Assembly: GCA_000092065.1 (NCBI GenBank)
Contig: CP000594.1
Strand: one strand, 5' to 3'
DNA: 64,000 nt
Origin: Ostreococcus lucimarinus
Lineage: Eukaryota
How positions within the stretch are numbered: the stretch's first letter is position 1; every line of letters begins with the position of its first letter. Shown here one piece after another: positions 29,211-64,000 of this stretch. The notes beneath the pieces are model-generated. The model ran no database searches. It saw nothing but the letters and a program-made list of their open reading frames with translations, and was not told the DNA's origin. The translations under genes were made by a program, and so were the position numbers.

Positions 29211-30103
29211 TTAAAGCGCCGTCGGGCGCCCACCGTCGACGCCGTCGCTCGACGCCTCGGCGGAGGCGCTCAAAAACCCTTGCGCCCACGCCTCGTCGCG
29301 ACTCCATCCGTCCTTTCCAGATGAAATCGAATTCACCGCCGTGGGCTTGGGTTCAGACGTGTACGACGGTCTAGCGCTCTCGACGCGCGAACCGACGGCG
29401 TCGAGAAGATCGTTCGCCCACGGCGCGCCCGGCATCACTCCCGACAGATTGGGATCGGCGAAGTGGGTCTCATCTTTCGGAGCCACCACGTACTCTCCCA
29501 ATCGACGCTTGATCGCGTTCAGAGCCATCTCCGCTCGAAGCGTGCGCTTTTCAAGTCTTCTGTTCTCCGCGTTCAAGCTGAGCACTTCGCGCTCGAGCGA
29601 AAAGTCGTCCACGAGCATCTTCGCGCGCTCTAAGTGCATTTGCTCCACCTTCGCCCGCAACCGCTTGCGGTCGGCGCGCGCGGGCCAACCGAGAACCAAA
29701 TTCCCAAAAAAAGCGCCGAAAAACCCACCCTTCATCACCCGTCGCGTCTCCGGCTTGAGATTCATCCACTCCTTTCTAATCGGCTCCGTCACCGGCTTCA
29801 ACAAATTATTAATCTGCCTCGCCGTCGGCCCAAAGTGATCGACCGCCACGTTCATCGACGGCTGTATCAACTTCGCCTTCTCATTCATCTCCTTCGTCAC
29901 CACGTTCTGCGTCGACTGCGCCCACGTCGCCGTCGTCGCCGTCGCTCGTCTCGTCAGCTCGCTCGCCTTGTCGAACCACTTCCCCCACCCCCCGCCCTTG
30001 CCGTCGCCACCGCTCGCGCTCGTCGAGGCCCCACCGCTCGCGCTCTGCGCGCCGCTCGCGCCGTTCGGTTCCTTGATCGACCGCACCGCGCGTCCGCGCG
30101 CGC

Positions 30104-30140
<37 letters not shown>

Positions 30141-30317
30141 GCGTCGTCCCGTCCCTCGTCGTCGCGCGCCGTCGTCGCGCGTCGTCGCGCGTCCGCGAAA
30201 CGCGCCGGGTGCGCCGCGATCGAGTCCGCGCGCGCCGAGTCCGCGCGGCGGCGGCAGCATGGCGCCGCCGTCGTCGCGCGTCGGCGTGCGCGGACGCGCG
30301 ACGACGCGTCGCGTCAA
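29211..30317 (-). CDS. Hypothetical coiled-coil protein with poly-Thr (T12) tract
   Basis: 368-aa ORF. The (CGT/ACG)n run at ~30105-30141 encodes the poly-Thr tract. Central region of ordinary composition (NEKAKLIQPSMNVAVDHFGPTARQINNLLKPVTEPIRKEWMNLKPE). Divergent from the VPS13 gene. Confidence 0.35.
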
Positions 30318-30596
30318 CGGCTCGGTCGGACGAGGACCGCTACACAGCGCAATTGGAGGTACTTTATGACCTCAGCGTTCATATTAGGACGGTGCGTGTA
30401 CCTATTTACCGGACGAGGACTGCGTCGTATCGGTAAACAGTGCGAGCGACTGACGCTTCAGTCGCGGTCGCGCGACGGACCCGTCGTCGCGCCGCGGCGC
30501 GCGCGACGGACCGCGAGCGAGGCGTCGTCCGTCGCTCGACGTCCGCGCGGCGTTCGCGCGCGCGATCGAGGCGCGCGCGCGTCGCGACGGACGACG

Positions 30597-39500: not shown

Positions 39501-42500
39501 CGCACTCATATAGATCATATAAAGCAAGAATTACAAGCTGGAGAGTCAATTCTCGCCATTTCGTTTTCTCCTTCCGGGCCGTTTGAGCAAGTGCGTCTTA
39601 ATCTAGGCGCTTCACACGTTGTTCGTCACAAGACTCACGATTTAGTCTTTGACAGTCAAAAGGGGCATCTTTTGAGCTATGTTTCGTGCGAAAACGAAAC
39701 AGATTCTGATATATTCGTTGATGTTCATCCAGCTATGAAGAGAGAACTCACGACTTCTAATTTGGACATATCTCTGAGTGAGAAGTATGAGTCGCCGAGC
39801 GATGTCGCGGATATAGAAGTATTTGAATCGGAACGATATTACCCGTTGAGAGGATGGCGTGCTCCAAAAGACGCTATCGTAAAAGCTCGTTATAGCAGGC
39901 ATAAAAGTGGACGAGGTTCGCAAAAACGGTTTCCAGACGTCAAAGCTCCAAAAGGTTTCAGATTTGAAGGACCGTGGGAGCTCGACAAACCACCAAATCT
40001 GGTGAATGACGACGGTTGGGCGTACGGTGCTATTTGGCTAAGGAAGTGGCCACCGCCTCGTGGATCAGACAAAAGTAAAGGTCGTGCAACCCGTCGCCGA
40101 CGATGGTTTCGTCGTGTCGTTCGATTGAAATCAGCTGAAGAAATTGAATCGCGCGTTTCCCTTCATAACATGAAGCGAGATTTCATCGAAGATTGGCACG
40201 GCACGTTGGCGGTACACGGACGTCTTACGCTACCTTCTTGTTCACGAACCGAGTCCTACATGTTGGCGTTACGCACGGGGGCTGACGTCGCATCAATTAC
40301 CGCTCCGTCGTTTACCGAGAGAGATGACGCGCTGGATATTCGTGACGTGTTATCAGAGCAAGGCAACTGTGCGCTTGCTTACAACAACCTGCACGATCAC
40401 TTTCTTTTGGTCAAAGAAGAATTGTCGAATGATGTGCAAAGTAGCGCGATAGGTGCTATTCCAGGCGTCAAGATTCGTGTCGTTGCCCCTGTTCACGTTG
40501 TCTCATTGATGGATTGTCCGTCGCAAGTTGTTTTGTACGCCAATGGCGAAGAAAGAATTGCCATGCATCTTGCCGCGAACGAAACGAAACGTATCACGGC
40601 GATCGATGCAAACTGTGATACAATAGAGGTGCTCGTGTCTTTGTTCGAAGATTATCTCAGCCTTAGTAACGACAGGCCGCTGCGTCTAGATGTCACCCCG
40701 GCTGGAAGTCCACCGGCGCCACAGGTAAACTGGTTGAACATCAAAGGCTATCCGTATGTGGTTTCTATGCTGTTGATGGAGACGTGTAGAACTAGAATGG
40801 CGGGTGATAAATTCAACGATGATCCTTCGCAGCATCTCTTGAGTCTGACGTATCGCAATGTGCTGATGGTTACAAATGCATCACCGATCGACATTAAGTG
40901 TTTGGCGTGGGTCGCTGGCACAAGTACGACAAACGCGCACATAGATGCATACGTTGGGGTACCCAAAGGCGAGTCGCAACCTGCCATGTTTCTGAAATCG
41001 AGTGCGAAAACCCTCGCCAAAGTTTCGAGCAAAGAATTTGTGCTCGGTTTTTGTATCGATTCGTCTCCAGTACTAGTGAAAATTTCACCAAGTTCTGAGC
41101 CCGTGATGTTTACGCTTATGACAGCAAGTGGGGACGAACTTGCCTTTCAATGTTCCGTAGTATTATGGGAGGGTCAAAACACCAACGCCGCGACATGGCC
41201 AACGCTTGAAGTTGTTTTACAACCCGTGCTCGTGGCGATCAACTTGACTCGAATTCCTCTCGCGATTCGCTCAAACACTATGGAACACAAGATACTCGAG
41301 CCAGGTTCATATCCCACGCCGTTTTCTTTGGATATTAAGTCTTCGAAAAGCGTAGACGAAGTTGAAGCCGTGCTTAATCAAGCCGCGATTCAAATAGCGG
41401 ATATGTCGTGTCATTCGGAAGGAAAAGATATACTTTGGAGTTCGCCGCTGCAGAATTTGGTGCGCTATTCTGGAGCGATGTGGAGCATCCCACAAGGTGC
41501 CTCCCCCTTGGCGGATGAAATTAATGCATTTAGAAGACTTGGAGGTATCGACGAGTCTGGCGAAAACGTAAATTTCAAGGCACCTATCATCGTTCAGTTT
41601 CTTGTCGAGCGCGGTGAGCACGGTTGCTTCAGGGTCTTTTTTAGGGGGGGCGACGGAGCATCTCTGCAGAAGGCGCCAATCATGATCAAAAACCATTTGC
41701 ACGAACCTTTACTCATTCGACAAGTGAAAGCGAACGACTTTGAGGACGTAGAAAAGAAGTCGGTGCAAAAGTCCACCGTGCGACTACTGCAAGGTATTAA
41801 GAAAGCCTCACACGGCGTAGGACAGTCTTTTGCAATTCGCCCGTTCTCAGCGATATCTTGGGCGTGGAGCGTCCCAGGTATTCCTATGAGATTGGACAAC
41901 TTGAAAAAACAGGAGCTCGAGGCAAACGCCGCGGAGCTCGCATTTCGAAAGCGGAAATTTTTGGAGATATCGAACAATACAGGGGATCACGTCATCATAG
42001 AGATAAACGCGTTCAGCTCGCGATTCAAGGGTTTCATGCACCTCGGCGACATGCAATTTGGAGAACTAGGCAAGCGCACGTTACAGGCAACGATTATTGG
42101 TGAATGGCGTGACGCATCGTTCGTGATCTTCGTGGTTGATAAAACGATAACGTTTGACAACTTTTCTTTCACGACTGAAATGACGAATCAAGCGAAAGCA
42201 TTGACGTTGTACGCGCGGCAGCAAGAAACGCACATCTCTGTCAATTTGGCTGGCTTCTCCGTAACAATCATCGATCGCCTCCGCGACTCATTCGTCGAGT
42301 TATTCCATCTCACGATCGACGACGTGATGATCAGGCACGGAATCAACTTAATCAACAGCAGTTCTGTCTATAGTTATCTCAGAATTGGTGCACTGCAGAT
42401 AGATTTTAGCACGCATGACGCAAGCTATCCAGTCTTCGTTTGGCACGACCCGGCGGACGGGCACTTGCTTGAAGCGTACGCTACTTTGAGTATGAATTCT

Positions 42501-43901
42501 CATATCGGTGGTGACTCGATCGATGTTTATCACGTCCAACTAACGACAACGAAGAAAGGCCTCGTGATTCGCGCCGGTGAAGATCTCGTCTGGACAATCT
42601 TGAACTTTTGCAGACTCCTCCAAACGCAACTTCCACAACGCAACGCTTCAGCAGGTTCCGCCATCGCGCCACGCGAAACGTTTGTTGGAAAGCAAACCTC
42701 ACAAGATAGTTTGCTGAATATCGCCACTTTATACGTGGAACCGACATCTTTTGTTGTCACGTTTGCTCCAAATTCCGATATCCGACCTGCAGACGCCGAC
42801 GCTCGGATGATCGCCGCGTTGACGTTTGCAAGTTTACAGCGCCTGCATTTGGTGCTCAACAAATTTGATAAATTCGATGAGAGCATACTTCGTTCGAATT
42901 TGATTCGCGAATTCCGAAACTATTTCAAGTCACAAATGATAGCGCAAACGCTCAGTGTCATGACATCGATGCACACGCTGACAAACGTTTCCACGGGTCT
43001 AGATGCAGTGAGCAAGGCGGTCGAAACCGGCTTCGGCGTACTCGCGCCTTCTCGTACGGCGCCTTTGGCTCGTTTGCCATCTTCTGTCGTCGGCCGAGGA
43101 AGCAGAAGCGACGGTCAGGGCAACTTTGCGAAAAGTGTATTCGTTGGTCTGAAACGACTGGGGGGTGGTATTTCTAAGGGAATTATCGGCCTTTTCGTCA
43201 GCCCTGTAAAAGGTTGCATGGAAGGCGGCGTCGTGGGCGGGTGTAAAGGATGCGCTCGAGGCGTCGCCGACTTGGTAGCTAAACCGACCGCTGGCGCGTT
43301 AGCTCTCGCCTCAAAGACGGTCGAAGGCGTAGCCAATGCCGCTAAAGGCGTACAGACTGCCGCGTGGGACATCATCACCACGAATAATGTCTCAAAAGCG
43401 TGCATTAAACGCCTCCCCATCGCCGTGCGATCGGATGGCATCATTCGAAGATGGGATGCGCACGACGCGTTGGGTGTTTATTGCATGCGCACATGCGTCG
43501 TGTCCAGTCGAACACTGGGCATTTCTTACTGTCCGGGCGTGAAAGACTCATTCTCCTCGATGCATGACATTTTCGGTGAATATTTGTTGCTTGTCACCGA
43601 CAAGCGCGCGTTGTGCGTTCGGACGCCGGAGATGGACGGGGCCATGCCGGCGCGCGCGCCGACTTGCGCGTGGTACATCTCTTGGAGTGATGTGAGCTCG
43701 ATATGGATCGAAAACTCTGTGATCATAAAGTTGCAGATGAACGTCACGAGTGAGGGCGACACTTCCAACCTGGGTGCGCAGAAGCGTGAAACCGAATCTT
43801 GTTTTTCGATTCGCGCTAGAGCCCAAGACGAGGCGGCGAACATCGAAGCCGCGATGCGTCAAAGCTGGAACGCCTACCTGGATACAACAGAAGAAGAATA
43901 G
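30597..43901 (+). CDS. VPS13: VPS13-family bulk lipid-transfer protein, ~4434 aa, intronless, with an internal series of Vps62/DUF946-like W-x-P-x-x-P-x-G-[YF] repeats
   Basis: N-terminal chorein-N domain MVFERLLADQLNARLGRVLEGVDRDDVRVGVLNGDVRIRRVRV..VRVPWRNLGKEAVRVTFHGVYVV. One continuous 13.3-kb ORF. The track ORF starts at 29634, but the first ATG matching the VPS13 N-terminus is at ~30597. Five repeats (WRPVAPPGYAILSDVV, WRPIAPTGFVSLGDIA, WEVIPPTGYVSTGHCM, WKPVPCAGFVSVGFVV, WKPIAPDGYVAVGNVV) lie at ~36.6-39.2 kb. Confidence 0.9.
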   Translation: MVFERLLADQLNARLGRVLEGVDRDDVRVGVLNGDVRIRRVRVRASALTKILDEPSARVRCGFVDELRVRVPWRNLGKEAVRVTFHGVYVVGEIDVNGDDEARESEEERRERQRVKALRTARRAADAAERAWLKWNPAVNAEALEAEDGRESAQDGVRKRSAIAGLIDVALANVLIEISNVHVRIEGEYGAGVPWGMGLVLERVSLTTVGEDFENDFKVGGFADSLRKMIALERVGVYADFNSPSVASETPDGWRGIREDQFVRQMSAVFNTEVGERMKEGTSGDVVIPQSYVFGPLRGTATYARRGHAEDTNTPLHQLRMDINSIQISIKSTQLKVFYNMYSNLRTSRVRYTYAHIRPRVGVKGNARLWWRFAGAGVQMHVDEIRKRRGLDFKSSVSAMVRITEARQRYIPLYVKHLRSAPPPPECLIAERAERRNKLWPPKLKIGMSTEIDEIEEGIPLQSIITFRTLAHVEYRESGGVKAAVARERAARFGKRRVVRAVVGLAGGGAKNTAKVLKGLSAPIRGLARAVNKRDSTALLVERQKRLRKSQPEEDDDSNWRESLENTVQLSQRMVALEEEAVHSSVELSGVVNVEKVLVCMVDDEVDNPIGEQEIFRIGVHEVSLGTLRGSGRREQRVSIRRLAIVSPEGTLLDSSKTTDNEERATSLDRSQVALWDKASECNAVQLQIVKGDVETEEDIFIKFQMRQSIVHLLREPLDRVARVAVRHKVTTAYLESFIYDDEAKQRNHTHSIEKQADEFKIRPRVRLDARVHGPVIILDGDGVNLRIDLGTTVIESMTPVSAGIESSLAKEHNVFSFQCTGFQVGFIDDEWDTNSNRPVEDEQIILPLLSAPSSNTVVIQNLNAASDAPNLKVHSKFSAIDISVSPVRVFKIRSLVKALKPTTSISEEHVAAVVTENEVRVLLLQLDESGEVCWIPATISLQNNSSMDIRTINGLKSRTIHINLMESNGASKLRSDICAKLSLHKDVLTIGETVHSLDELMISAMSDDSLSVMFDIDDDDARSRDTVLFDAWYARINGVARENITRLTNAAKNGKLSKTQVILSVGAEKLSVHVFAPLKAHPSEDDSAVINDESDSERALASLCFDELNYDSSLARTVKVHHIKANSLVLYDRYASEGLGRECIAGIGGQGSGQPLLTVTVAVRHQSDPQYCGLDKLIEVDIHKELVMNIRRPTLLALISLRFRLRPPGFKIIKIMPDVSSRIMISGKLVKRIKREIRVNVAAVTANGFYDHDKEMDVPVLVLRAEDSYWSTIISPPTRETSVSVGTIKLATGQMQARGAWNLQPSPESSSNIILLRNDVYDRGEELDGADVSWEIELGNLDIVMTPEMKEIGSWFAFFRQIRPDHIEKYVHPCARPRAGFQVLKSRLLIKMDDQRITLPVALSEGESNHDVVINSGCVEITRSFSSKAINEAHSIFWQTTALSVSEFEVSVISFAEKRRESVSKITQKPFGVKLSLRKRIDSGPAIVNELDDKNKIRVQPIFLDLSGSEFRCIHDSIKNIQLSKVRPNVKVENPIRWGSVGPLPVSDVLAPASLKSMELSVILSSAKLRVFRLPMQSRPLSTIKVVGVDVFVVKNLNRKSGINLDATVDMIGVDDNSRQSQNLKVKHVLYAGSPKLPLLHLTLGVNDDSTRLRISLQHVEVLLRVGIILDTIRTFAPRKFGGVFLASTILPQDIKCVHGSDFHLDKDVTLTKSTRLLADDPKIVAGKYVLRGGGHTIKFADGKGAIIRHYSHGSRRKTMPRIIIGHGATLKIENVTFNCTRSTLSRFIKMMPGGSYSLGKSVSFDETEEELIPVHDGLVESTPVIDAATKRAEEGPGRRMKEIKKKPLLVEVDVSCVHIVIGEELRADQINLMFGVDVAIIRDEELNTTGTYQLLRLRTKDTMKPPLLEPASVTMHVVSRDGGTTTCTGCVTPIKMQLSPNRICILKNFTERIERSFAIAPILQTGVYSCVWAGHATTLTKKVTEAGVLRQNQAGSNTSYSIWRPVAPPGYAILSDVVKSEGGAPETQVLIVRDAPALCTLPERFEKVKGTANPCLWRPIAPTGFVSLGDIASVSDADEPSLDVVRCIREELVTNIGQASTLANFRLYGDFSQSNTTLWQMNNRVRGFVVVSKSNIRPYAYDIRSPPGFQRKVSTGTKEKIKLQEKECECATAVNFKKIGMAQNAKSTVGFWEVIPPTGYVSTGHCMSVGKLPPLSSRVFADDKRTFRQPESYEKVASARTYGTTQRLTIWKPVPCAGFVSVGFVVTTEDNEPSVNDSIVCVRAELVSYMHQRNWTTDNSVWTVDENATDTTHFWITNDHTKNFVMSVLTTGMTPDFGFDIGFLESSSLRGQVQMPNFIMKFDVPLVSVGLSFERLFRNQMLFLLRLEKTKLSCTKTSKLNLSLDSSLSLLHRNTRLGYSLEPIVAPWKFSVLLDDSKNDVSGVNPAGLDMFIESKKKIEIIVNQASIVDAVDAVMQFKKPRDKNSKIAHLLAYEAVQNNVIVNSTGRDLWVRELNGNIQEVPPGNSISHLVHAAETEANSGFESASNEQTMRGMTDVVDDMNHHGDEQLIIAYLMMDIVAIDSLDDWLYPRITFKIWDEALQGHRTDPLPIGVTRGSAKLPIPHPFFHRDSDSEFINNDDITIIVEISHIGPNGETLSFSGDFEAPIEQQRGGWIGGKTGSWIDCAAGNGDSVRIKLRARVVEGLNATPVTETVELYQLLKSPQKTIIKSKLQVESPPLIVCRTNDMVKQWWTRDHQQSKSALSAWKPHVPSTYELETRYKFCSSRAENEYKLVPFGTILLPGLIAPRSALMAVVLEHNSDQRAPTAFPSGFENIWTSDKNDVSFWKPIAPDGYVAVGNVVAASAEMPSTDCVVCVREDLTKLAEVPPDVAWKSNRRFRNNDERELALIQNGQLSTGGWSFLKEKIKRTSPGVISNVIPSMHRLNDRMCIHSLDDEGIREFWIDNRTHIDHIKQELQAGESILAISFSPSGPFEQVRLNLGASHVVRHKTHDLVFDSQKGHLLSYVSCENETDSDIFVDVHPAMKRELTTSNLDISLSEKYESPSDVADIEVFESERYYPLRGWRAPKDAIVKARYSRHKSGRGSQKRFPDVKAPKGFRFEGPWELDKPPNLVNDDGWAYGAIWLRKWPPPRGSDKSKGRATRRRRWFRRVVRLKSAEEIESRVSLHNMKRDFIEDWHGTLAVHGRLTLPSCSRTESYMLALRTGADVASITAPSFTERDDALDIRDVLSEQGNCALAYNNLHDHFLLVKEELSNDVQSSAIGAIPGVKIRVVAPVHVVSLMDCPSQVVLYANGEERIAMHLAANETKRITAIDANCDTIEVLVSLFEDYLSLSNDRPLRLDVTPAGSPPAPQVNWLNIKGYPYVVSMLLMETCRTRMAGDKFNDDPSQHLLSLTYRNVLMVTNASPIDIKCLAWVAGTSTTNAHIDAYVGVPKGESQPAMFLKSSAKTLAKVSSKEFVLGFCIDSSPVLVKISPSSEPVMFTLMTASGDELAFQCSVVLWEGQNTNAATWPTLEVVLQPVLVAINLTRIPLAIRSNTMEHKILEPGSYPTPFSLDIKSSKSVDEVEAVLNQAAIQIADMSCHSEGKDILWSSPLQNLVRYSGAMWSIPQGASPLADEINAFRRLGGIDESGENVNFKAPIIVQFLVERGEHGCFRVFFRGGDGASLQKAPIMIKNHLHEPLLIRQVKANDFEDVEKKSVQKSTVRLLQGIKKASHGVGQSFAIRPFSAISWAWSVPGIPMRLDNLKKQELEANAAELAFRKRKFLEISNNTGDHVIIEINAFSSRFKGFMHLGDMQFGELGKRTLQATIIGEWRDASFVIFVVDKTITFDNFSFTTEMTNQAKALTLYARQQETHISVNLAGFSVTIIDRLRDSFVELFHLTIDDVMIRHGINLINSSSVYSYLRIGALQIDFSTHDASYPVFVWHDPADGHLLEAYATLSMNSHIGGDSIDVYHVQLTTTKKGLVIRAGEDLVWTILNFCRLLQTQLPQRNASAGSAIAPRETFVGKQTSQDSLLNIATLYVEPTSFVVTFAPNSDIRPADADARMIAALTFASLQRLHLVLNKFDKFDESILRSNLIREFRNYFKSQMIAQTLSVMTSMHTLTNVSTGLDAVSKAVETGFGVLAPSRTAPLARLPSSVVGRGSRSDGQGNFAKSVFVGLKRLGGGISKGIIGLFVSPVKGCMEGGVVGGCKGCARGVADLVAKPTAGALALASKTVEGVANAAKGVQTAAWDIITTNNVSKACIKRLPIAVRSDGIIRRWDAHDALGVYCMRTCVVSSRTLGISYCPGVKDSFSSMHDIFGEYLLLVTDKRALCVRTPEMDGAMPARAPTCAWYISWSDVSSIWIENSVIIKLQMNVTSEGDTSNLGAQKRETESCFSIRARAQDEAANIEAAMRQSWNAYLDTTEEE

Positions 43902-52344: not shown

Positions 52345-53545
52345 CTGCGTTCGAAAATAAGAAGCGAAAAAGTGAAAATGTCAGTCTTCGTCCGCTCGCT
52401 CGTTCATCGTCTCAGAGAGTATGGTCACAAAATATCCACATTGGGTATTCGGTAAAGTTTTTGGGTTAAGGTTTTCATCTTCCTTGACGACGGCGCGATT
52501 GAAGTCGAAGAAAAACGAACGTCGAGAACGACGACGACGACGACGGATGTAGCAGGGGTTCTAGAGGCCGTTAGTCATGGACAGACACGAAGCCCGCTTT
52601 ACCCAAGCGTCACTCTACGGGCGTCTTCTGACGCGTCCGCGAATCTTTGAATCGCGGCGCGCACGTTCGAGATAAATCTCGCACCCAACATCGATCGAAA
52701 AGTAAAATGAATCCATTCAGCGGCGTGTCAGTGTTTCGTGAATCTTTTCACCGCGCCGAAACGCTCTAAAGGTGTCCTAAGATATATTGACGAAGTCATC
52801 ACCCACACCGCCGAAACGGCGAGAAAAACCAAACAAACAAACCAACGATCGCGTCAGGAATCAAAAATGATTTCGTTTCAAAGGAAGCCACTGAACACGG
52901 AGTCCTCAATTGAACTATGCCTTGATTCGAGCATCACCCGCGTCGTCGTCCGTCGTCTTCGTCGTCTTCGTCGTCGCTCGACGAGAGAAAAATCCACCCG
53001 CCGCTCGCGCGCGTTTCCAAGCCTCAGCTTAACGAGATTCACAAGTTTGATCGTCACCGAAATCAGATGGTACGGACAAGTGTGTCTCATCATCGGCTTC
53101 GCGCGCGCGACGGGCGGTCGCGCGTTTTCGTTTATCCGGCTAGCGTTCCGGCGTCGCGGGACCGGCCCGCGCGCCTCGCTCACGGTTCGCCGCGTCTCGC
53201 GCGTCGCTCGCGCTCTCGCGCCCGTCCCGAGAGACGCGCGCTCGATCGCGTGCGTCATCGCTCGACGGTGGTTTATCTCGGCGCGACCGAGCGCTGCGCG
53301 CGTCATGAGCGGGACGCGGCAGTGACTCTAGAGTGGATCGGCCTCTCGCGTTCTCGCGCGTCGCGTCGTCGTCGTCGTCGTCGTCGTCCTCGTCGCGTCG
53401 CGTCGCGTCGTCGCGCACCTCGTCGCGCGTCTCTCGCGCGCGCGTCTCGCGTTCGCGCGCGCTCGCGTCGCGCGGTGCGGTCGGGTCCGATTCGCCGCCG
53501 CCGCCGCACACCGCGACGCCGCGTCGACGCGCCGCGACGACGCGC

Positions 53546-55067: not shown

Positions 55068-56864
55068 CTATTTCTTCGCGACGACTTGCGCGAAGCTCAC
55101 TTTGACCTTCTTCGCCGCCGCGGTCTCCGTCCCCGCGTGTAAATCATCGTTGAGCGAGTCCAATTGCGTGATTGAATCGTCTTCTTGCATTTCTTTGCGT
55201 TTGCGAGCCGCCTTCGTATCGTCTCCCAGGGGCAAAGGTTTCTCTTCGGAGATTTTCTTTTCCTCGTCCTCCGCGCTCGCCGCTTTCTTCTCCTTCTCCG
55301 GCGCGTAGATGTCCTTGACGTAGCCGTCGATTTCTTCTTTCACGAAGCTCGGTAAATCCTTGCGCTTCAAATATTTGACGTTCGCCTGCATCCCGGGTAC
55401 CCAGTTCGATTCCCCAGTCGCGCGATCCATCCACGACGTCACAGTCATTTGGAACTGCTCCACCGCGGGATTCAAGTTGAGCGAAACCTTCTCCTCCTTC
55501 TTCTTCAGGCTCGAAGGAAATAACCCCAAGAACAGCGTGACGTGCGAGTTTTCGTCCTTCTCCGGATCTTTGTACCTCGACGTGCCGGGATGCGCAAGCA
55601 TTTGCCCTCCCGTGGCGTTTTCGATGCCTTGGATTAAAAGCTTGATTCGCGAGCCGACCCAACCTTCCCACTTCTTAAAGTCATCTTCGTTCTTGGCCGA
55701 GATGGTAACCATCAAATAATGCTTGTATTTTTCTAAAAAGTTCAACGAACACCACAGCTGCTCCCACTTCGCGGTGTTTAAAAGAATCATCTTGGTCACT
55801 TCCTTGCCGCGCTTGAACTCGGCTTTGAGCACCTCGAGCGTGCTGACGCTCACGTTGAACGTAGAGTTTTGCGCCGGATACGCCGGAGTTAAGATTTTCA
55901 TCAACTGATATCGCTCTGCCTTGTTCACACGCTCGTCCCACACTCGCATCCCGGGTAAGCCTTCGTCGACGATGGGTACGAGCATCACCGGCGTCGTCCA
56001 TTGCCACGCCGACCATAGTTGGAAAAAGCTGTACACGAGCATGGAAGGTGCGGCGTTGGGGTACAACTGACACACGCGCGCTACTAAAATCGCCAGGTTT
56101 ACGCCACCGAAAAACCCGACGACGTTGCTATACACCCCGCGCCGCTGCGCCCACAGACGCAACGTGCGAAGCGCCACTCGAAACGCGTCGTGGTTTGGCA
56201 CGACGCGCAACAACTGATCCGCCACGCGACAACCATTCAGGGATTTCACCCCTGGGTCGTCCAAATTCATCATCACCGACGTCTGACACACGTCTAAGTC
56301 CTCTGGCACGTGCGTGTACGACGGTAAGCTCGTGTACGCCATATCTATTTCAAAACCTCTAAACACGAGTTTGATTTCTGGCACGATGGCGTCGCGCACG
56401 GGCACGATGCTCTCCGTTCCAGGGTGTTTCCGCATCACGTCATAAAACGACCCTTCGTAATCATTCTCATCCCATCCAAAGAAATCCTCCTCTCGGCTCA
56501 GATGTCTCGGCCCGAGGCACAGCGTATCGATATCCGCAGCCGGTCCGTGCACGCCCAATCTATAGCTCCCAAACGTGTACAAGTTACACGACGGCCGCAT
56601 ATCCTCTGTGATCCCCTTTCGCTCGCTCGCCGCCAGCACCCAGTCTTGCAACAACGCGTTTATCTCCCCCAGCACCTCCTCGCGTCGCACGCACTCGTCC
56701 GCGTCTTCGTACACGTCCTCTTCCCGCAGTTTGTCATCGAGCGCCTTGCTCAACTTTTCGTCGAACGCCGTCGGCATCTCGTTCGACATCACGCGATTCA
56801 GCGCCTCCGCGGACGCCGACTGGGTCATGACCGACGGTGCGGAGGGCGTCTGCGCGCCGATCAT
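55068..56864 (-). CDS. PAP: Canonical nuclear poly(A) polymerase
   Basis: Nucleotidyltransferase core LYTFGSYRLGVHGPAADIDTLCLGP. Central domain RLWAQRRGVYSNVVGFFGGVNLAILVARVCQLYPNAAPSMLVYSFFQLWSAWQW. Ser/Lys-rich C-terminus. Confidence 0.9.
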   Translation of the reverse strand: MIGAQTPSAPSVMTQSASAEALNRVMSNEMPTAFDEKLSKALDDKLREEDVYEDADECVRREEVLGEINALLQDWVLAASERKGITEDMRPSCNLYTFGSYRLGVHGPAADIDTLCLGPRHLSREEDFFGWDENDYEGSFYDVMRKHPGTESIVPVRDAIVPEIKLVFRGFEIDMAYTSLPSYTHVPEDLDVCQTSVMMNLDDPGVKSLNGCRVADQLLRVVPNHDAFRVALRTLRLWAQRRGVYSNVVGFFGGVNLAILVARVCQLYPNAAPSMLVYSFFQLWSAWQWTTPVMLVPIVDEGLPGMRVWDERVNKAERYQLMKILTPAYPAQNSTFNVSVSTLEVLKAEFKRGKEVTKMILLNTAKWEQLWCSLNFLEKYKHYLMVTISAKNEDDFKKWEGWVGSRIKLLIQGIENATGGQMLAHPGTSRYKDPEKDENSHVTLFLGLFPSSLKKKEEKVSLNLNPAVEQFQMTVTSWMDRATGESNWVPGMQANVKYLKRKDLPSFVKEEIDGYVKDIYAPEKEKKAASAEDEEKKISEEKPLPLGDDTKAARKRKEMQEDDSITQLDSLNDDLHAGTETAAAKKVKVSFAQVVAKK

Positions 56865-57883: not shown

Positions 57884-57927
57884 ACATGTAGAAAATTTGT
57901 TGTTATACATATACTTGTACACTTTGA

Positions 57928-58548
57928 TTACTGTACGCGGGCCATCCAGTTTGCAGGCGGTGACCAGGTTGTCACCGCCGCATGGTGATCTCTCTGGTCT
58001 TTAGGTGGGCAAGGCCCCATAGCCAAAAACTTCAAAGAACTACTATATTCCAGCGTGTCCAGTGCTTCCACATTGCGAAGCTTTTCGTCATCTCTTTTTT
58101 CCACCAACACGCAGAATTCATTTACTTCCACTGCCCAGGCCTGGCCGGTGTTTCTTTCTATTTTGTACATGCCGGCTCTGCATTGGAGGCCCATATTGAA
58201 AAGCTTAGCCTCGTTGACTTGCTAACAAACTTTCTCAAATGCCTCTACCATTTTCGGCGGTGTGCAACCCACCGGGAAGCGTATAGCAGACCAGCATCGG
58301 ATCGTTTCACAAATGGGCCACCCCCCCATGTCCTTCAGTGCGCCGTTCAAGATATCTACAAGCTCGATCGCCACGGGTGAGTTTCTCGACCAATCTGGGT
58401 CACGGGCACGCATGTAGAGAGGCGACGGCGCATGGGTTTTCAGCAGGGGGGCGATGCGCCAGGACGTGAAGTCGTGTTTCCCCTGAACTTGAAGAACTGC
58501 GAGCAGGTCGGGGTGATAGAATGCTGGGGTGCTCAGGCAACAACCCAT
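57928..58548 (-). CDS. Hypothetical protein beginning MGCC (possible N-myristoylation/palmitoylation); two adjacent ORFs 58222..58548 and 57928..58194
   Basis: Two co-linear minus-strand ORFs separated by a stop. They may be one gene with an intron or two small genes. Lower-GC context. Confidence 0.25.
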
Positions 58549-58889
58549 GATGCGCTGTGTTTCTTTTCTCGGCCACGCGCGCGTTTTCTTTTGTCCGCCT
58601 CTCTCTCGCGCGCGCGTCGTCGAGTGATGCTGGTGCCGCTCGTGACGGATTTAAGGGCGTGAACACCCGCGTGTAAAAGCAGACACTTTATATAGCACTT
58701 TGGGAGGTTAAAAGGTGTCCCAAAGTCTCATACATTGGCCTATACTTTGGCAACATCCCGCGCTTTGATTACTGTACAGTAATCAAAGCGCGGGATACCG
58801 TGGAATGGACTCGGAAAAACCTCTAGAAGTTCGGCGGCGCCATTCCGCGCGCGATCTCAGCGGGCGAGCGTGATCACCAACGTGGACCG

Positions 58890-60959
58890 ATGAGGCACCG
58901 ATCGTACCGTGTATGCAATGGACGCACGCTCGCACTCATCGCGCTCGTCGTGCTTGTCGCACGCACGCAGCGCGTCTTCGCTTCGCCGACCGACGAGCGA
59001 AGATTCTGGACGCCCACTGTCGTCGCCGTGGACGACGGCGTCGGTTCGAAGATCCGACGCATGGGAAACGATGTGGAGAAATCGAAGTCTTTCGTGTTTG
59101 AGAACACGGTAGCGGAATCGCTGACAAGAGATGGCGTCGTCGCGGTGCGAGTGCGAGGCTTGAACGAAGCAAAGACACAGAGCGCAAAACTCTTCATGGA
59201 TTGCGCGCGGGTTACGGATAATGTTGCAGTAGAAGAGTACGACGATGGATCCAGGCGCGTGACGCTCGCCACGACGACGAAGCAGAGGGGGAGTGGTTTC
59301 GGGGAACCCACGTCCAAAGCATGTAAGAAGTTCGAGGTCACGACGAAAATGCTTCGCGCGAAAGTTTCTGTGGCCGAACAAGCAATCACGGACGTGTTTC
59401 AGAGCAAGTTTTCAGATCTGAGTGAATTTGCGAACGGGGTACTGATGCAGGGAGAGAACGGCGAGACCTATAAAACTTTCTCGGAAGTATTGAAAGACTG
59501 CGAGCACCTTGAACATTTTCACGGCTACACGATTTCACCACAACAAAAATTGAAGAATAGTAAAGTGCGGACGATCGAAGAGCACACGGATCAAGGTCTA
59601 CTCATCGCATTCGTCCCGGCCATAATTGTCGATGCAGTGACGGGAAGGCGCGATAAGTTTTCCTCAACCGGCGATTTTTATATGACGCTTCCTGGGCATC
59701 GCAAGGTGCTTCTCCATTTTGACACGCTTCCAGACGATGTCGTTATTTTTATGCTGGGTCAAGCAATCGAGCAACAAATCACTCCCAAACTTGCAAACGG
59801 CCTTGAGCTTCACGCTGTACCACACGCAATGGATATGCCCAATCTTAAATCTAATCAGTTCAGATTTTGGTATGGGCGAATGTTCCTCCCACCTGAGAAT
59901 GCCTTGGACGAAAGCCATGGTCTCTCTTTTGGGACAGTGCGCGCTAACATCATCGAAGATTTCGCACGTGGGCTGAAGACATCCGTGGGATGTGGTCGTG
60001 AGCTCCTCTCCGTGGCAGGGAGCGGTTCATGCGCTAGCAACCAGATATGGTGCTGGATGCGATGCATGAATCACTCAGCGCCGGCGAGCAATCCACTCAC
60101 ATGCAGGACGGGTCATAGTGTCCAATGTTTGAGCCAAAGACTGGAAGTCTGGACGGATGCCGACAGTCATGGTGATTATAATCCTGGATGCACCGACGAG
60201 ACCAACGAGACAAAGCCCGTCACCGATCCACCGACCATCCCAGCTCGAGCAGCCTCTTGTACAGATGGAAACGCCTGGGAAACTTTTTTGAACCACTCCG
60301 AATATGAAAACAGCTTGGAGCTGTTACAAGATAAGTTATATTTACTCTGGACTGTTCAAAATGGTAAGTTAAAAGCCCGAGTTGCCTTCAATGGCAAGAT
60401 TGGTTGGTTTGCTCTCGGCATCAAAAACCTAGGAGGGAAACACAACGGGATGAACGGGGCGAACATCGTCATGGGCGTCCACGACCCTCATCCAATGGGT
60501 CACGACAGCAATTTCGGTTCTCCTTATGTTGGAAAGAGCAGTGCGAAACAATACAAAATCCACGATCATTCTTCTGCTTTTCGACATTGGAATGACACTG
60601 CTGACGTTGCCTCACCCTTCGTGAGTTCGACGACGTTCAATTCATGTTTCAGTTGTATGCGTTTCGAGACGGCCTCGATACGGGGCGAGGCTCTGAATCT
60701 CACCTCTGGTATTAATGAACTCATCTGGGCTGCTCATGATGGCACTTACCTCAAAGGCTACCATGAAGTACAAGGATTCGATCGGAGAGATGCACGCGGG
60801 CATCTCACGCTTGACCTGACGCGAAATTACGGTCGTGTAACGTGCGGCTTCTCAAGAGGCTGGGCTGCGGCGAGTCAAACATGTGCTTTTTCGGCAGCAA
60901 GCACTCCTTCAGCGATAGTTTCTATATCCATTGCTGTCATTGCAATCCTCGTTATGTGA
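58890..60959 (+). CDS. Secretory-pathway 2-oxoglutarate/Fe(II) dioxygenase-like domain fused to a DOMON-like domain, with N-terminal signal peptide and C-terminal hydrophobic anchor
   Basis: Signal peptide LALIALVVLVARTQRVFA. 2OG-oxygenase-like block EHTDQGLLIAFVP...VVIFMLGQAIEQ...NGLELHAVPHAM...RFWYGRMFLPP (HxD...H...R spacing). DOMON-like block LYLLWTVQNGKLKARVAFNGKIGWFALGIKNLGG...NIVMGV...IWAAHDG. C-terminal anchor SAIVSISIAVIAILVM. Confidence 0.55.
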   Translation: MRHRSYRVCNGRTLALIALVVLVARTQRVFASPTDERRFWTPTVVAVDDGVGSKIRRMGNDVEKSKSFVFENTVAESLTRDGVVAVRVRGLNEAKTQSAKLFMDCARVTDNVAVEEYDDGSRRVTLATTTKQRGSGFGEPTSKACKKFEVTTKMLRAKVSVAEQAITDVFQSKFSDLSEFANGVLMQGENGETYKTFSEVLKDCEHLEHFHGYTISPQQKLKNSKVRTIEEHTDQGLLIAFVPAIIVDAVTGRRDKFSSTGDFYMTLPGHRKVLLHFDTLPDDVVIFMLGQAIEQQITPKLANGLELHAVPHAMDMPNLKSNQFRFWYGRMFLPPENALDESHGLSFGTVRANIIEDFARGLKTSVGCGRELLSVAGSGSCASNQIWCWMRCMNHSAPASNPLTCRTGHSVQCLSQRLEVWTDADSHGDYNPGCTDETNETKPVTDPPTIPARAASCTDGNAWETFLNHSEYENSLELLQDKLYLLWTVQNGKLKARVAFNGKIGWFALGIKNLGGKHNGMNGANIVMGVHDPHPMGHDSNFGSPYVGKSSAKQYKIHDHSSAFRHWNDTADVASPFVSSTTFNSCFSCMRFETASIRGEALNLTSGINELIWAAHDGTYLKGYHEVQGFDRRDARGHLTLDLTRNYGRVTCGFSRGWAAASQTCAFSAASTPSAIVSISIAVIAILVM

Positions 60960-61210
60960 CGCGGAAGTTTGCATTCTTCACGATCTTTCAATCGACACCC
61001 GAAACAGTCTGAGCACGCACCGACAGTCACGCCGTTGTAGGTCCCGGCGTGATAACAGAACTCTTCGCTTGATGCGAGTGCGTTCGTGCTCGCGTACGCA
61101 CTCGAAACGGTGCAGTCGGCGTGAGAGAAACACACGTCGCCCGGGTCCGCGCGCGCGGTGTGCGCGACGGCGAGAGCGAAAACGAACGGCACGAGGAGGT
61201 TCTGAAACAT
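60875..61210 (-). CDS. Small secreted Cys-rich protein (111 aa from ATG; signal peptide MFQNLLVPFVFALAVAHTARA)
   Basis: ATG at ~61208-61210; 10 Cys. Its 3' end overlaps the convergent upstream gene by ~85 bp, so the call is tentative. Confidence 0.3.
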   Translation of the reverse strand: MFQNLLVPFVFALAVAHTARADPGDVCFSHADCTVSSAYASTNALASSEEFCYHAGTYNGVTVGACSDCFGCRLKDREECKLPRHITRIAMTAMDIETIAEGVLAAEKAHV

Positions 61211-61302
61211 TTTTGGTGTGGGTTTAGCTCGCGAAAAAGTTTCAGCGAGGCTTGACGTGCGCCGCAAAGTGAGGTTCGGAGATCCGGAGATCCGCCGGTT
61301 GA

Positions 61303-61464
61303 CGCCCCGCGGGGCGTGTGTGCCAGCCCGTAGGGTTTAGGGGATCGGACATATGGAGCCTCACTATTAAGACACACTGTCATATATATTAATGGATTTA
61401 TGACAGTGTGTCTTAATAGTGAGGCTCCATATGTCCGACCGCGGGCACACATCCCCGCGGGGCG
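61303..61464. repeat. Long hairpin-forming inverted repeat: perfect 40-bp arms (61345..61384 / 61399..61438) around a 14-nt AT loop, nested in imperfect GC-rich outer arms (cgccccgcgggg..gtgtgtgcc)
   Basis: TCGGACATATGGAGCCTCACTATTAAGACACACTGTCATA and its exact reverse complement, separated by tatattaatggatt. Confidence 0.85.
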
Positions 61465-61706
61465 CCAGCAGGGTCAGGTCGCAATTTTGCGTTTTCCCGC
61501 TCAGCCTTCACTAGAAACGTGTCTAAACCGGCCACTTTTTAAATCTTGTTTTTTGCTAGGTTTTTACTGTCTCCGGGTCTCGGAGGAATCGCGTGGAGTG
61601 ACCGGTTATGGGTTTAGTGGTTGGAGGTCCTGTGAGGAACTTTCTCTCCGTCACTTTTTTTCCATTTTTGAAAAAAAAAACGTCACATGTAAACTTTATA
61701 AATAAA

Positions 61707-61730
61707 CCTATAACCTATAACCTATAACCT
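61707..61730. repeat. (CCTATAA)4 heptanucleotide microsatellite
   Basis: cctataacctataacctataacc, downstream of an A10 run. Confidence 0.8.
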
Positions 61731-61863
61731 TGAAGGTTGAAATTTCTTAAGACCCGGGGTCCGCTGTTAAGGGGGGTCGGAACGCACAGAGAAATCGGGC
61801 TCGTCGTCCTGTGTATCAGCAGTCCTGTAGTAGGAAGTCATTTTTTGCTGTTTTGGGCATCCC

Positions 61864-62172
61864 TTGCGTTCAGAGATTCCATTCTGAAGAAATCTTAAGC
61901 GAGGGCACCAAAAACTCAAGGTCTCAACGGTCGCACGCTTCAGACTAGTTACATCTTCTGTACCTCCAAGCAGCGAAGTGCTCCTGTGTGTCAGGTTTGT
62001 CTCACCAAACACCGAGATCTTCGAGAAGACGAACACGTTCCGCTGAGAGTTTGCACGTGCACCTGTCTTCCTTTGCCTGATTTGTGAGCCATCACCCCAG
62101 ATTTGAATGTGGCGTATCTTATCGCGACACTCTCGCTTAAGATCTCTTCAGAATGGAATCTCTGAACGCAAG
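61864..62172. mobile_element. MITE-like non-coding element, ~309 bp, bounded by 40-bp terminal inverted repeats (37/38 identity in the core)
   Basis: Left arm cttgcgttcagagattccattctgaagaaatcttaagcgag (~61864..61903). Right arm ctcgcttaagatctcttcagaatggaatctctgaacgcaag (~62132..62172), which is its reverse complement with one mismatch. No ORF inside. No clear target-site duplication seen. Confidence 0.45.
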
Positions 62173-62996
62173 CCGTGGATGTATTAAACTGTGAACGAGG
62201 CTAGTCATGGTTCGATTTTTTGGATTACAAGTGTAGGTCTACTTTTACGTTTCGTGGACTCCGCTTGAGTCGGCCGATGTCACCACGTCAGGTGTTTCGA
62301 GTGCACTAGAGACGTGACCGCCGATACACAGGACGTCGAGCTCGGCGTGCCTGATTTCACGACTCGGTGACCATGGTTTGAAACCGAAATGACCATCGGC
62401 TTCAGGCCCAGGCGCGGCCGCAATGCTACTTTAAACTTAATATATTTTTTTTGAAAAAAGAGTAGTAAGAGTAATAAAAATAAACTTTTTTTTTGAGTTG
62501 GGGCACCCCAACATGATAAAACCGCACATCGCGGCGAGCCATGCGCGACCATCAATTTGATGTCATGTCTAGTCAGGCTCTCGTGGTAAAAACGTAAGAT
62601 GTGCTTATTACAGCATATGCCAATTGCGCAGTAAATCTCGAAGGACGACATCAAACATATCACAGAGCGCGCGCTTCACACCGTACAACACCATCTAAGG
62701 TACTTTCGACCGACGTTTTAGGCAATTTTGACTCGCCGACTGGTCTTTTCCAGTTGTGACGTCAGATTCGATACGATACTGGGTTACGATGCGTTGAGTT
62801 GGACTGTAGAGGCCTGTACCCTTACATGCACATCTTCCATGGAGCGCTGGAGAAAAGGCATTGTTGCATAATTATTGTCAAAATATAGATATTTTAATTT
62901 GACGCCACCATTATTAACTTTAAAATCAAGCCAGATCGCGACGACACTGAACATTTGAATGTGTATTCACACTTGAGAGACACTGGTTTCGGCAAC

Positions 62997-63980
62997 TCAC
63001 GATCGAGTACCGAAGACAAAATTAGCGCACTTTTTTCTATCATCTGCAGAATGCGAGTTTGGCGCATTTTTTACTGCGTCGCAGTGTTTCTTAGCCGCTT
63101 TGCACTGTTTGGAGCAGACATGCGGACATGCTGCCACCCAGGTTGGGTTGGAACATAGATGGCGCCTGCCTTCCGGCTTGCCGCAGCCCCGCGGAATCGA
63201 TTCACAGGGAGCCATGTTGGGTAGATCAGGCGTTTCCCAGACGGTACCAGAGATACCATCGAAACCTGGGCACGTGTAATCGTCACTCAGAGTACAGCCA
63301 GTCGCCGCCGAGCCTTGACAAGATCTTTTCCAACCACCCAAACGCCTATGGCCCTTTGTACGCTTTTGGCAAGTACCCGTCGACACGTTGTACGCTTGTT
63401 TAGCTTCCTTAGTATCAAACGAGTGACACACGCATGAATCAATCAGTGGCAAAGCGCGGACCTGTACGGCCGGCTCATGCTCGCACGCCCAACACGAGTG
63501 TCCTCCAATACTGATCCCGAACCGCTGGCGCATCTCTGACGCGCAGACTTTCGCGCGTTCCTCCTCGTTGAGCTCCATTCCCGCGCAGGCACAAGCGCAC
63601 TGTGCACGCGACCACTCCACTCCATCTGTCGCACCAACATAACCTCTCATATCATTCTCCAGTTGGGCGTGTTGGTCGTGGCATATTCTCGCACACGCCG
63701 CGAATGTCTTCATAGATTCTGGTAGTCCGTAGTGCACCGCGGCCTGGGACACCGCGTCGTCATCCATGAGTTTCCACCCCGTGACCCCCGAGCTCACTGG
63801 CCGCCGCCGCCGCCCGAGCTCACTTGACGGTGCATCCAAATCACCGCCCGCATCGCCTGGGTCCGTCGCCACCGCCGTGAACGGCGCATCCGCGTCAACG
63901 CCCGCGGCGACGTTCAGCGCCGCGGCCCCCACGAACAGCGCCAACGTCAAAGGTGACACACATTGCCTTCGAAACCCCAT
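62997..63980 (-). CDS. Secreted Cys-rich protein (signal peptide; >25 Cys) of unknown family
   Basis: N-terminal LTLALFVGAAALNVAAG signal-like segment. Numerous CxxC/CxC spacings (CACACAG, CWACEHE, CVCHSFD, CPHVCSKQCKAAKKHC). Confidence 0.35.
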   Translation of the reverse strand: MGFRRQCVSPLTLALFVGAAALNVAAGVDADAPFTAVATDPGDAGGDLDAPSSELGRRRRPVSSGVTGWKLMDDDAVSQAAVHYGLPESMKTFAACARICHDQHAQLENDMRGYVGATDGVEWSRAQCACACAGMELNEEERAKVCASEMRQRFGISIGGHSCWACEHEPAVQVRALPLIDSCVCHSFDTKEAKQAYNVSTGTCQKRTKGHRRLGGWKRSCQGSAATGCTLSDDYTCPGFDGISGTVWETPDLPNMAPCESIPRGCGKPEGRRHLCSNPTWVAACPHVCSKQCKAAKKHCDAVKNAPNSHSADDRKKCANFVFGTRS

Positions 63981-64000
63981 CCCGCGCGCGCGATCTGCTT

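Follow-up and report, generated by a model that had tools for sequence, protein, structure and literature searches.

Inverted repeats of a large low-GC spacer in Ostreococcus lucimarinus as probable remnants of dispersed repeats

The spacer and its surroundings

The window analysed here is a stretch of 64,000 nt from Ostreococcus lucimarinus (assembly GCA_000092065.1, contig CP000594.1). Its subject is the intergenic spacer at 61211-62996, whose inverted structures a preliminary description had read as possible miniature transposons and which are traced here to fragments of dispersed repeats. The window is compact, intron-poor green-algal nuclear DNA and encodes a poly(A) polymerase, RRP12, a ULK4/RUNKEL-type kinase and a P-type ATPase. 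Of five window proteins looked up, four were identical to entries of O. lucimarinus CCE9901, among them a poly(A) polymerase and the products of the 689-aa and 327-aa genes near the spacer. The GC content drops from approximately 0.59 to approximately 0.52 from about 57.9 kb on, and the low-GC island that begins there reaches past the window end. Measured from the start of a 111-aa gene (61210), the spacer is 1573 nt long up to a 56-aa open reading frame (ORF; 62784) and 1786 nt long up to a 327-aa gene (62997), compared to 722 nt for the second-largest gap in the window, and its GC content is 0.47-0.48 compared to 0.58 window-wide. The earlier statement that it is far larger and more AT-rich than the other spacers was thus correct. 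Both flanking genes, described earlier as convergent, are on the minus strand in tandem, and the spacer forms the 3' side of the 327-aa gene and the 5' side of the 111-aa gene. A Pfam scan of the spacer ORFs produced no matches, and tRNA and Rfam scans of the spacer produced nothing above threshold. The 56-aa ORF (62784-62954, minus strand) was called as a gene in metagenome annotation and has no family match. The term "gene-free" can be kept as far as intact genes are concerned; it does not hold for 61917-62115 (minus strand), a fragment of a helicase pseudogene.

The window was compared with fetched metagenome contigs (numbered with the prefix L). Positions 58769-64000, spacer included, were approximately 100% identical in roughly 14 same-species contigs, two of which had N-gaps at the hairpin, and no presence/absence polymorphism of the spacer was found among them. 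The only high-identity inverted repeats in the 64-kb window were the hairpin and a 41-nt inverted pair; the others were GC-rich low-complexity matches. In the list below, E is a repeat of approximately 100-200 nt, T is a core of approximately 45 nt, W, Y and Z are three related subfamilies of the left flank of T, X is its right flank, truncated at variable points, and V adjoins Y.

58755-58796, no strand: junction J1, a perfect 42-nt palindrome (ATCCCGCGCTTTGATTACTG-TA-CAGTAATCAAAGCGCGGGAT) at whose centre wild haplotypes differ
60875-61210, minus: left flanking gene, 111 aa, with a signal-peptide-like N-terminus; 5' end toward the spacer
61295-61472, no strand: extended imperfect palindrome, consisting of two copies of the inner E sequence in inverted orientation; 20 extra nt (61325-61344) in the left arm
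61331-61343, plus: telomere-like AGGGTTTAGGGG just left of the hairpin, with 2 mismatches to (TTTAGGG)2
61473-61595, no strand: spacer DNA between the palindrome and W, without a paralogue among the fetched loci
61596-61862, plus: W, non-coding left flank of T, shared with other W-type copies; includes (AACCTAT)3.7
61796-61824, no strand: outer inverted pair, partner at 62316-62344; homologous stretches of the W and Y flanks
61863-61903, plus: T core, left arm of the 41-nt pair; homologous to the last codons, the stop and the first ~35 nt of the 3' untranslated region (UTR) of an HA-repeat helicase; 6-bp stem TTCAGA..TCTGAA
61904-62131, minus: X, pseudogene fragment from the C-terminus (HA repeat and tail) of an Mrr_cat_2/SF2/HA helicase; coding-like part 61917-62115
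62132-62172, minus: T' core, right arm of the 41-nt pair, another copy of T, inverted and belonging to the Y subfamily; shares GAAGAGATCTTAAGCG with L055; outer flank Y-type
62173-62576, minus: Y and V, which together with T' are the complete D5-like/HA-helicase intergenic region, inverted; ends exactly at the D5-like stop codon position
62577-62996, no strand: spacer DNA without a paralogue among the fetched loci; contains the 56-aa ORF
62997-63980, minus: right flanking gene, 327 aa (355 aa in metagenome calls); 3' end toward the spacer

The hairpin, the 41-nt pair and their paralogues

The hairpin has arms of 43 nt with one mismatch (61345-61387 and 61396-61438). The perfect 40-bp-arm hairpin reported earlier at 61345-61438 was confirmed for 40 nt of each arm (61345-61384 and 61399-61438), which by direct reading encloses a loop of 14 nt (61385-61398), and the imperfect outer inverted repeats around it were also found (61295-61314 and 61453-61472; 20 nt, 85%). 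The DNA fold of 61290-61480 reached -80.5 kcal/mol (z = -14), and none of 200 shuffles was as good. Copies of repeat E with a single arm were present at L009 9755-9814 (87%), L053 8665-8722 (78%), L025 1-53 (79%) and L054 1154-1214 (81%); L052/L053 were also counted among the loci with a hairpin-arm paralogue, and the E paralogues were 78-87% identical overall. Every single-arm copy runs outward via ...CATCCCGC..GGGGGTAAATTACWG/TA, the outward sequence ...ATTTATGNCTANCAYCCCG..GGGGGTARATTACWG reaching the TA and then the inverted partner CWGTAAT..., and these paralogues always extend to the junction motif TTACWGTACWGTAA. The inward continuation, ...CACACACACGCGGGGCGCC, is seen in L054 and is the counterpart of the outer arms in the window. 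Because the single-arm paralogues extend outward to the TA and inward like the outer arms, 61295-61472 is seen to be two inverted E copies minus their outermost ~50-70 nt. Elsewhere, repeat E ends in ...ATTACWG/TA/CWGTAAT... junctions where gene blocks differ between wild haplotypes. The telomere-like 13-mer next to the hairpin (AGGGTTTAGGGG) is the sole telomere-like match in the spacer and is weak when taken alone (8 of 100 shuffles match as well). It may be ancestral E sequence because L053 carries a related AGCCCTCAGG at the equivalent place in E.

That the hairpin encodes a miRNA-like precursor or another structured non-coding RNA was regarded as extremely improbable. Rfam in E-value mode matched both of its strands to the models mir-3149 and mir-4818, as is typical for any perfect hairpin. 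However, the scores were 39-46 bits against gathering thresholds of 92-100, no match was obtained in gathering mode, and the arms represent part of a dispersed repeat of which the other copies are not hairpins. Mamiellales are not known to have canonical RNAi genes. No evidence for any function of the hairpins was found.

The 41-nt pair (61863-61903 and 62132-62172; 40 of 41 positions matching, 228 nt apart) had been described as the terminal inverted repeats (TIRs) of a separate 309-bp element. The pair itself, the shorter outer pair (61796-61824 and 62316-62344; 29 nt, 86%) and the tandem tract, (AACCTAT)3.7 at 61705-61730, are all present as described, and the fold of 61790-62350 reached -109 kcal/mol (z = -6.8). 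Copies of T were collected in metagenomes by the exact 23-mer of the left arm, and then by BLAST and anchored listings. The component sequences are multi-copy, as the hairpin-arm paralogues also showed; the 23-mer was found in 34 metagenome stretches representing at least 14-16 distinct contexts, an approximate count since it is derived from single-linkage clusters that over-merge loci with one flank only. Outside the orthologous locus, each locus among the 34 stretches had one T core except L043, which had two cores 7.9 kb apart in the opposite arrangement to that of the window.

The two arms differ in their surroundings, the left one being flanked by W-type and the right one by Y-type sequence. 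Positions 61596-62134 were 84-92% identical to L028, L045, L050, L037 and L046, and positions 62128-62576 were 93-96% identical to L022, L024, L033, L035, L040, L054 and L055, so that each half of the unit is closer to its relatives elsewhere (84-96%) than to its partner half. Homology of W to the first five loci begins at 61596-61603, with different DNA further left, while homology to L009 begins at 61717. Since the arms lie in different flank subfamilies and each has closer relatives elsewhere, the 309-bp "element" is a W-T-X copy abutting an inverted T-Y-V copy, and the outer 29-nt pair is the leftover similarity of W and Y, two diverged versions of one module placed head-to-head.

The origin of X, Y and V became apparent from a pair of genes found intact elsewhere. 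The Y/V side of L024 has its start precisely where a D5_N/DUF5906 primase-helicase-like gene has its stop codon. A cluster-mate of this D5-like gene is carried by L054 and L055, contigs of chromosome scale (843 and 838 kb, respectively), where it converges on a 1575-aa Mrr_cat_2/DEAD-ResIII/Helicase_C/HA-repeat helicase (L054 6001-13313 and L055 6001-13143); the pair is 20-34 kb away from the ends of these contigs. L055 has an intact helicase gene; in L054 it is broken into several ORFs. The Y/V match extended over ~450 nt at 93-94% (L024 2870-3322, L054 7974-8421 and L055 7974-8422), and the ~440-nt intergenic region of L054/L055 was 94% identical to window 62134-62576. The stop codon of the L055 helicase is the TTA inside ...ATCTTAAGCG... 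of T (the CTTAAG of T). At the DNA level, X had many matches inside the helicase genes of L054 and L055 (HA repeats). A tblastn search of the window with the L055 helicase produced a match to the HA repeats with an expected value of 2e-9 and 54-64% identity, and a match of the extreme C-terminus in another frame (3e-4). X contains two in-frame stops and a frameshift and has no codon periodicity; its helicase origin is evident only on comparison with the intact gene. Other X copies end at variable points, and between the window and L009 copies no ORF was conserved in the repeats. The 94% intergenic match, the match of X to the HA repeats and the helicase stop codon within T together indicate that T is the helicase stop codon with the first bases of the 3' UTR, that X is a helicase C-terminal pseudogene and that T'-Y-V is the whole intergenic region, retained between the two stop codons. 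Bacterial proteins ("Helicase associated domain protein") make up the main part of the helicase family, and the nearest named eukaryotic match of the helicase was in Bathycoccus prasinos (67%). As for viruses, exact IMG/VR searches for the TIR and the hairpin arm produced no hits, the D5-like protein had no close relative there, and a viral origin was rejected.

These results bear on the idea that the 94-bp hairpin and the 309-bp unit are inserted non-autonomous DNA transposons, i.e. transposable elements of the miniature, inverted-repeat kind (MITEs). In common with MITEs of the Stowaway type, derived from Tc1/mariner elements, the spacer structures are short, AT-rich and non-coding, with real and near-perfect inverted repeats of approximately 40 bp and multi-copy component sequence, and the junctions near the spacer show TA flanks and 5'-CAGT ends. 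Unlike in MITEs, the arms are separate copies of a gene-end motif with different flanks around a helicase pseudogene interior. Neither the 309-bp unit nor the hairpin recurs whole; all paralogues are one-armed, and the unit or its paired arms in the window arrangement occurred at no other locus among the metagenome stretches examined. Direct reading of the flanks of the unit (...GGGCATCC/CTTGCG and CGCAAG/CCGTGG (/CCGTGGAT)) revealed no direct repeat, hence no target-site duplication. Homology to paralogues crosses both supposed ends: on the left it begins at 61596 or 61717, 146-267 nt before the left arm, and on the right it extends 400 nt past the right arm, to 62576. Insertion polymorphism, which had been proposed as a check, is absent from the spacer among the roughly 14 conspecific contigs and is present next door, as a 9-kb block at 58776. 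Of the hallmarks of a MITE, the inverted termini were therefore found, and target-site duplication, recurrence of the whole unit and insertion polymorphism were not. The reading of the 309-bp unit as a MITE is already contradicted by the sequence comparisons, and two miniature transposons are a very unlikely explanation of the spacer.

A similar case is known from the same genus: an ORF-less spacer of 1,001 bp with 225-bp inverted repeats, present in six copies in O. mediterraneus, was read as a non-autonomous transposable element (PMC13390643), which lends the MITE idea some support. By its description, it resembles the window's spacer in being non-coding, inverted-repeat, low-copy dispersed and tied to hypervariable DNA, and it recurs as a whole unit whereas the one in the window does not. 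A genuine MITE-like sequence adjoins the block of L009: at L009 841-985 (also in L008, L012, L013 and L015) there is a 143-nt foldback with inverted ends of ~27 nt (TCCGTATGTATTACTTTCCACG... and ...CGTGGAAAGTAATACATACTGA) and TA on both sides. Nothing in the spacer is as good a candidate for a MITE as this foldback.

The genomic contexts of T were also compared. In nearly all fetched loci, with L046 as a possible exception, the ORFs on either side of T are convergent, and the stop of the right-hand gene is 80-450 nt away from T. The right-hand genes are mutually unrelated (giant membrane-anchored proteins, DUF285, SF2 helicase, S74 tail-fibre-like proteins and a coiled-coil protein); therefore, the module is not simply inherited with one gene family. 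Other genes adjacent to T were a C5 DNA methyltransferase with PWWP and Tudor-like domains and a metacaspase with an MLKL_N-like N-terminal domain (L040 555-2951 and L045 348-1970).

The main rival to a rearrangement origin of the spacer, considered improbable, starts from this position between genes. T, with its 6-bp stem just past the stop, and V, with the GC hairpin GTTGGGGCACCCCAAC (62497-62512) between A and T runs, would be selected bidirectional transcript-end signals, and in the window the paired T cores and the hairpin would block read-through from the 327-aa into the 111-aa gene. The position of T whatever the gene in almost every context, the exact stop-to-stop retention of T'-Y-V and the tandem arrangement of the window genes, by which the spacer needs a terminator somewhere, all agree with such a role. 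However, T is nearly invariant, so covariation is uninformative, there is no gene for the left T-X copy to face, the exact-match search introduced a bias into the sample, and decay of the two-gene unit by flanking deletions would leave its centre last and give an equal pattern.

As the largest gene-free and lowest-GC gap of the window, with repeats known from about 15 other places, the spacer could also be taken for a short AT-rich centromere or replication origin marked by repeats. T cores, however, cluster several per 15-27 kb (the window, L009, L043 and L021 with L052) instead of one per chromosome, other T copies lie in ordinary short intergenic gaps, the surrounding island is hypervariable and the literature search gave nothing on Ostreococcus centromere sequence. 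A centromere or origin was thus considered highly improbable.

Junctions between gene blocks in the island

Next to the spacer, haplotypes L008-L015 have a block of ~9 kb with a giant DUF285 gene placed exactly at the centre of J1 (58776), and L001 and L016/L017 have other DNA left of this point. In the inserted block of the L009 type, one end region has a copy of window 61717-62134 (88%) and the other a copy of the hairpin left arm (87%), and because of these copies the spacer was suspected to be repeat-built.

Six variants of J1 were seen. The window has the bare palindrome, L021 and L002 have E plus a 14-nt unit (TA-CAGTAATTTTACTG-TA), L008-L015 have (TTTAGGG)3 within the 14-nt CAGTAATTTTACTG unit, an insertion absent from L021 and L002, two have a different E-type end (L016 and L017), and one has a non-E left neighbour (L001). 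POT1 of O. lucimarinus binds TTTAGGG-type DNA (PMC2794166), and the insertion at J1 is therefore of the telomere-repeat type. The sequence ...ATTACTG TA CAGTAAT... has one TA in the window and three TAs around two inserted units in L021, the TA count going up by one per inserted unit. In L025 the sequence is TA-CTG-TA, and in L052 such motifs form an array with inverted E copies on either side. The DNA left of the E junction also differs between L054 and L055. The same metagenome contig has a third junction with inverted E copies, J3, past the G8 gene. The block that stretches from the hairpin to J3 has inverted E copies at its ends, while the DUF285 block has E at one end only. A degenerate J1-like junction (CTTTGATTACTGTA/CGCGGGCC) was also noticed at 57921-57945, exactly at the GC drop where the island begins. 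It bounds a unit of ~840 bp (57938-58776) with a possibly broken small gene (N-terminus MGCCLS...; ORFs 58222-58548 and 57928-58194, minus strand).

Cut-and-paste transposition of the Tc1/mariner type leaves TA flanks, 5'-CAGT ends and 3-nt footprints. The E junctions do have TA flanks and 5'-CAGT...ACTG-3' termini. A Tc1/mariner-type origin of the junctions is put forward as a hypothesis only, because no transposase was found and one block has E at one end only; a scan of about 70 neighbouring ORFs revealed no transposase, integrase, reverse transcriptase or capsid gene.

The preliminary description had also proposed a recombination hotspot, and a single item speaks for it. Positions 1-1000 of contig L051 equal the window over 61248-61732 and the L009 paralogue from 61755 on, with a clean switch at 61733-61754, which joins the hairpin spacer of the window type to a W-T-X copy of the L009 type and its DUF285 gene. 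L051 would be either the product expected from unequal crossing-over between two direct W-T-X copies (a tandem-duplication haplotype) or a chimera of the assembly.

Origin of the spacer and related systems

With a probability of about 0.7, the spacer is a rearrangement scar of repeat fragments within a low-GC hypervariable island, and its hairpins are by-products. This reading starts from what the comparisons established: the identity and multi-copy nature of the pieces, their single-copy state elsewhere and the polymorphism of the neighbouring junction. The spacer would have been built from truncated copies of two dispersed repeats, placed between gene blocks of the island on an otherwise ordinary chromosome. 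Two E copies facing each other, with their outermost ~50-70 nt lost, would give the 40-bp-arm hairpin and its imperfect outer arms. The second repeat would derive from the two-gene unit, in which the D5-like primase-helicase and the Mrr-nuclease/SF2/HA-repeat helicase converge on V-Y-T of ~440 nt. The window would retain two broken copies of this unit head-to-head: W-T-X, made up of a flank, the stop codon and 3' UTR of the helicase and 230 nt of pseudogene from its C-terminus, and the inverted T'-Y-V, with the intergenic region alone. The conserved T cores of ~45 nt in both copies would then mimic TIRs of 41 bp, and their diverged W/Y flanks would produce the outer 29-bp pair. The inverted structures would be by-products of juxtaposition and deletion, with no dedicated function, and the repeats would serve as substrates for ectopic recombination that reshuffles the blocks.

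For the hairpin, we infer either deletion of the centre of a longer E-TA-E palindrome with arm conversion, or fold-back duplication or repair of one end, because its arms are identical to each other and only 78-87% identical to the paralogues; both routes are plausible and the sequence is equally compatible with each. In yeast and mammalian cells, palindromes are known to be revised by deletion around a break at their centre, and double-strand breaks to give rise to fold-back inverted duplications. The likeness consists of a long inverted E-TA-E junction missing its centre, identical arms and a short asymmetric loop. Unlike in those systems, the mechanism would here follow from anatomy alone, no intermediate or polymorphic hairpin state having been seen.

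Several points weigh against the scar reading. The hairpin arms are 100% identical over 40 nt, compared to a difference of 13-22% between independent E copies; therefore, juxtaposition of two old ends is insufficient and conversion or a recent fold-back must be added. No transposase, integrase or reverse transcriptase that could account for the spread of the pieces was present near any copy scanned. The position of T between convergent genes and the stop-to-stop retention of T'-Y-V would also fit selection for a 3'-end or terminator function. T was searched by an exact 23-mer, and its apparent extra conservation is thus partly ascertainment. The repeat copies come from metagenomes of mixed, related populations and not from the reference-strain genome, and none of the seven neighbouring proteins found in the collection shares a cluster with a CCE9901-named entry. 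Finally, L051 is possibly an assembly chimera at a 47-nt exact repeat.

Dispersed helicase copies suggest a further comparison. Subtelomeric repeats bearing helicase genes include the Y' elements of yeast and the telomere-linked helicase gene families of fungi. In the algal sequences too, a variable compartment rich in repeats contains scattered copies of the helicase gene and fragments of it cut at varying points, two contigs of chromosome scale have the intact pair 20-34 kb from their ends, and a telomere-type repeat occurs at J1. In contrast to the Y'/RecQ-like repeats, the algal helicase is of the bacterial Mrr_cat_2/SF2/HA type and is paired with a D5-like gene, and a subtelomeric position of the window is no more than a possibility.

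A broader and doubtful possibility is that repeat E represents the inverted ends of large (3-20+ kb) TA-flanked mobile blocks in Mamiellales. Such blocks might have the D5-like primase-helicase and the nuclease-helicase as their ancestral core and giant surface-protein genes (G8/CEMIP-like, DUF285) as cargo, and might insert, excise and recombine at palindromic E-TA-E junctions. Were this true, wild Ostreococcus would have, on a standard chromosome, a locus for the exchange of cassettes, perhaps with relevance to virus resistance, the hairpin of the spacer would be a dead junction, and T-X-T' would be the gutted core of one block.

Under the scar reading, the spacer itself is ordinary in kind, and the adjoining junction system is the part worth following. 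The case is also a caution that near-perfect inverted repeats of 40 bp in a compact genome can stem from two broken repeat copies lying head-to-head. Hypervariability in Ostreococcus has so far been discussed mostly for outlier chromosomes and virus resistance. Here, a standard chromosome of a model picoalga carries a low-GC island with blocks that differ between wild haplotypes at short palindromic TA junctions, a polymorphic telomere-repeat insertion at one junction and remnants of a pair of bacterial-type helicase and D5-like primase-helicase, and a junction defined by sequence makes the mechanism of block exchange testable. In a literature search, the O. lucimarinus genome paper not included, no publication was found that treats these repeats, the centromeres of Ostreococcus or subtelomeric helicases. 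In the cross-species comparison, a 689-aa gene near the spacer had no relative above 40% identity and two fetched contexts were not syntenic.

Other features of the window were also recorded. No tRNA was found, and the single Rfam snoRNA match, snoR117 (C/D box; 53019-53098, minus strand; 43.4 bits compared to a gathering threshold of 42), lies in the second-largest gap. One ORF of 4755 aa spans 29634-43901, and its part from 32 to 43 kb has a GC content of 46-50%, well under the window mean. The proteins encoded at 55068-56864, 58890-60959 and 62997-63980 are each identical to CCE9901 entries with two GenBank and two RefSeq accessions whose numbers are offset by 34-35, which suggests that the region occurs twice in the assembly as deposited, either as a segmental duplication or as a duplicated record.

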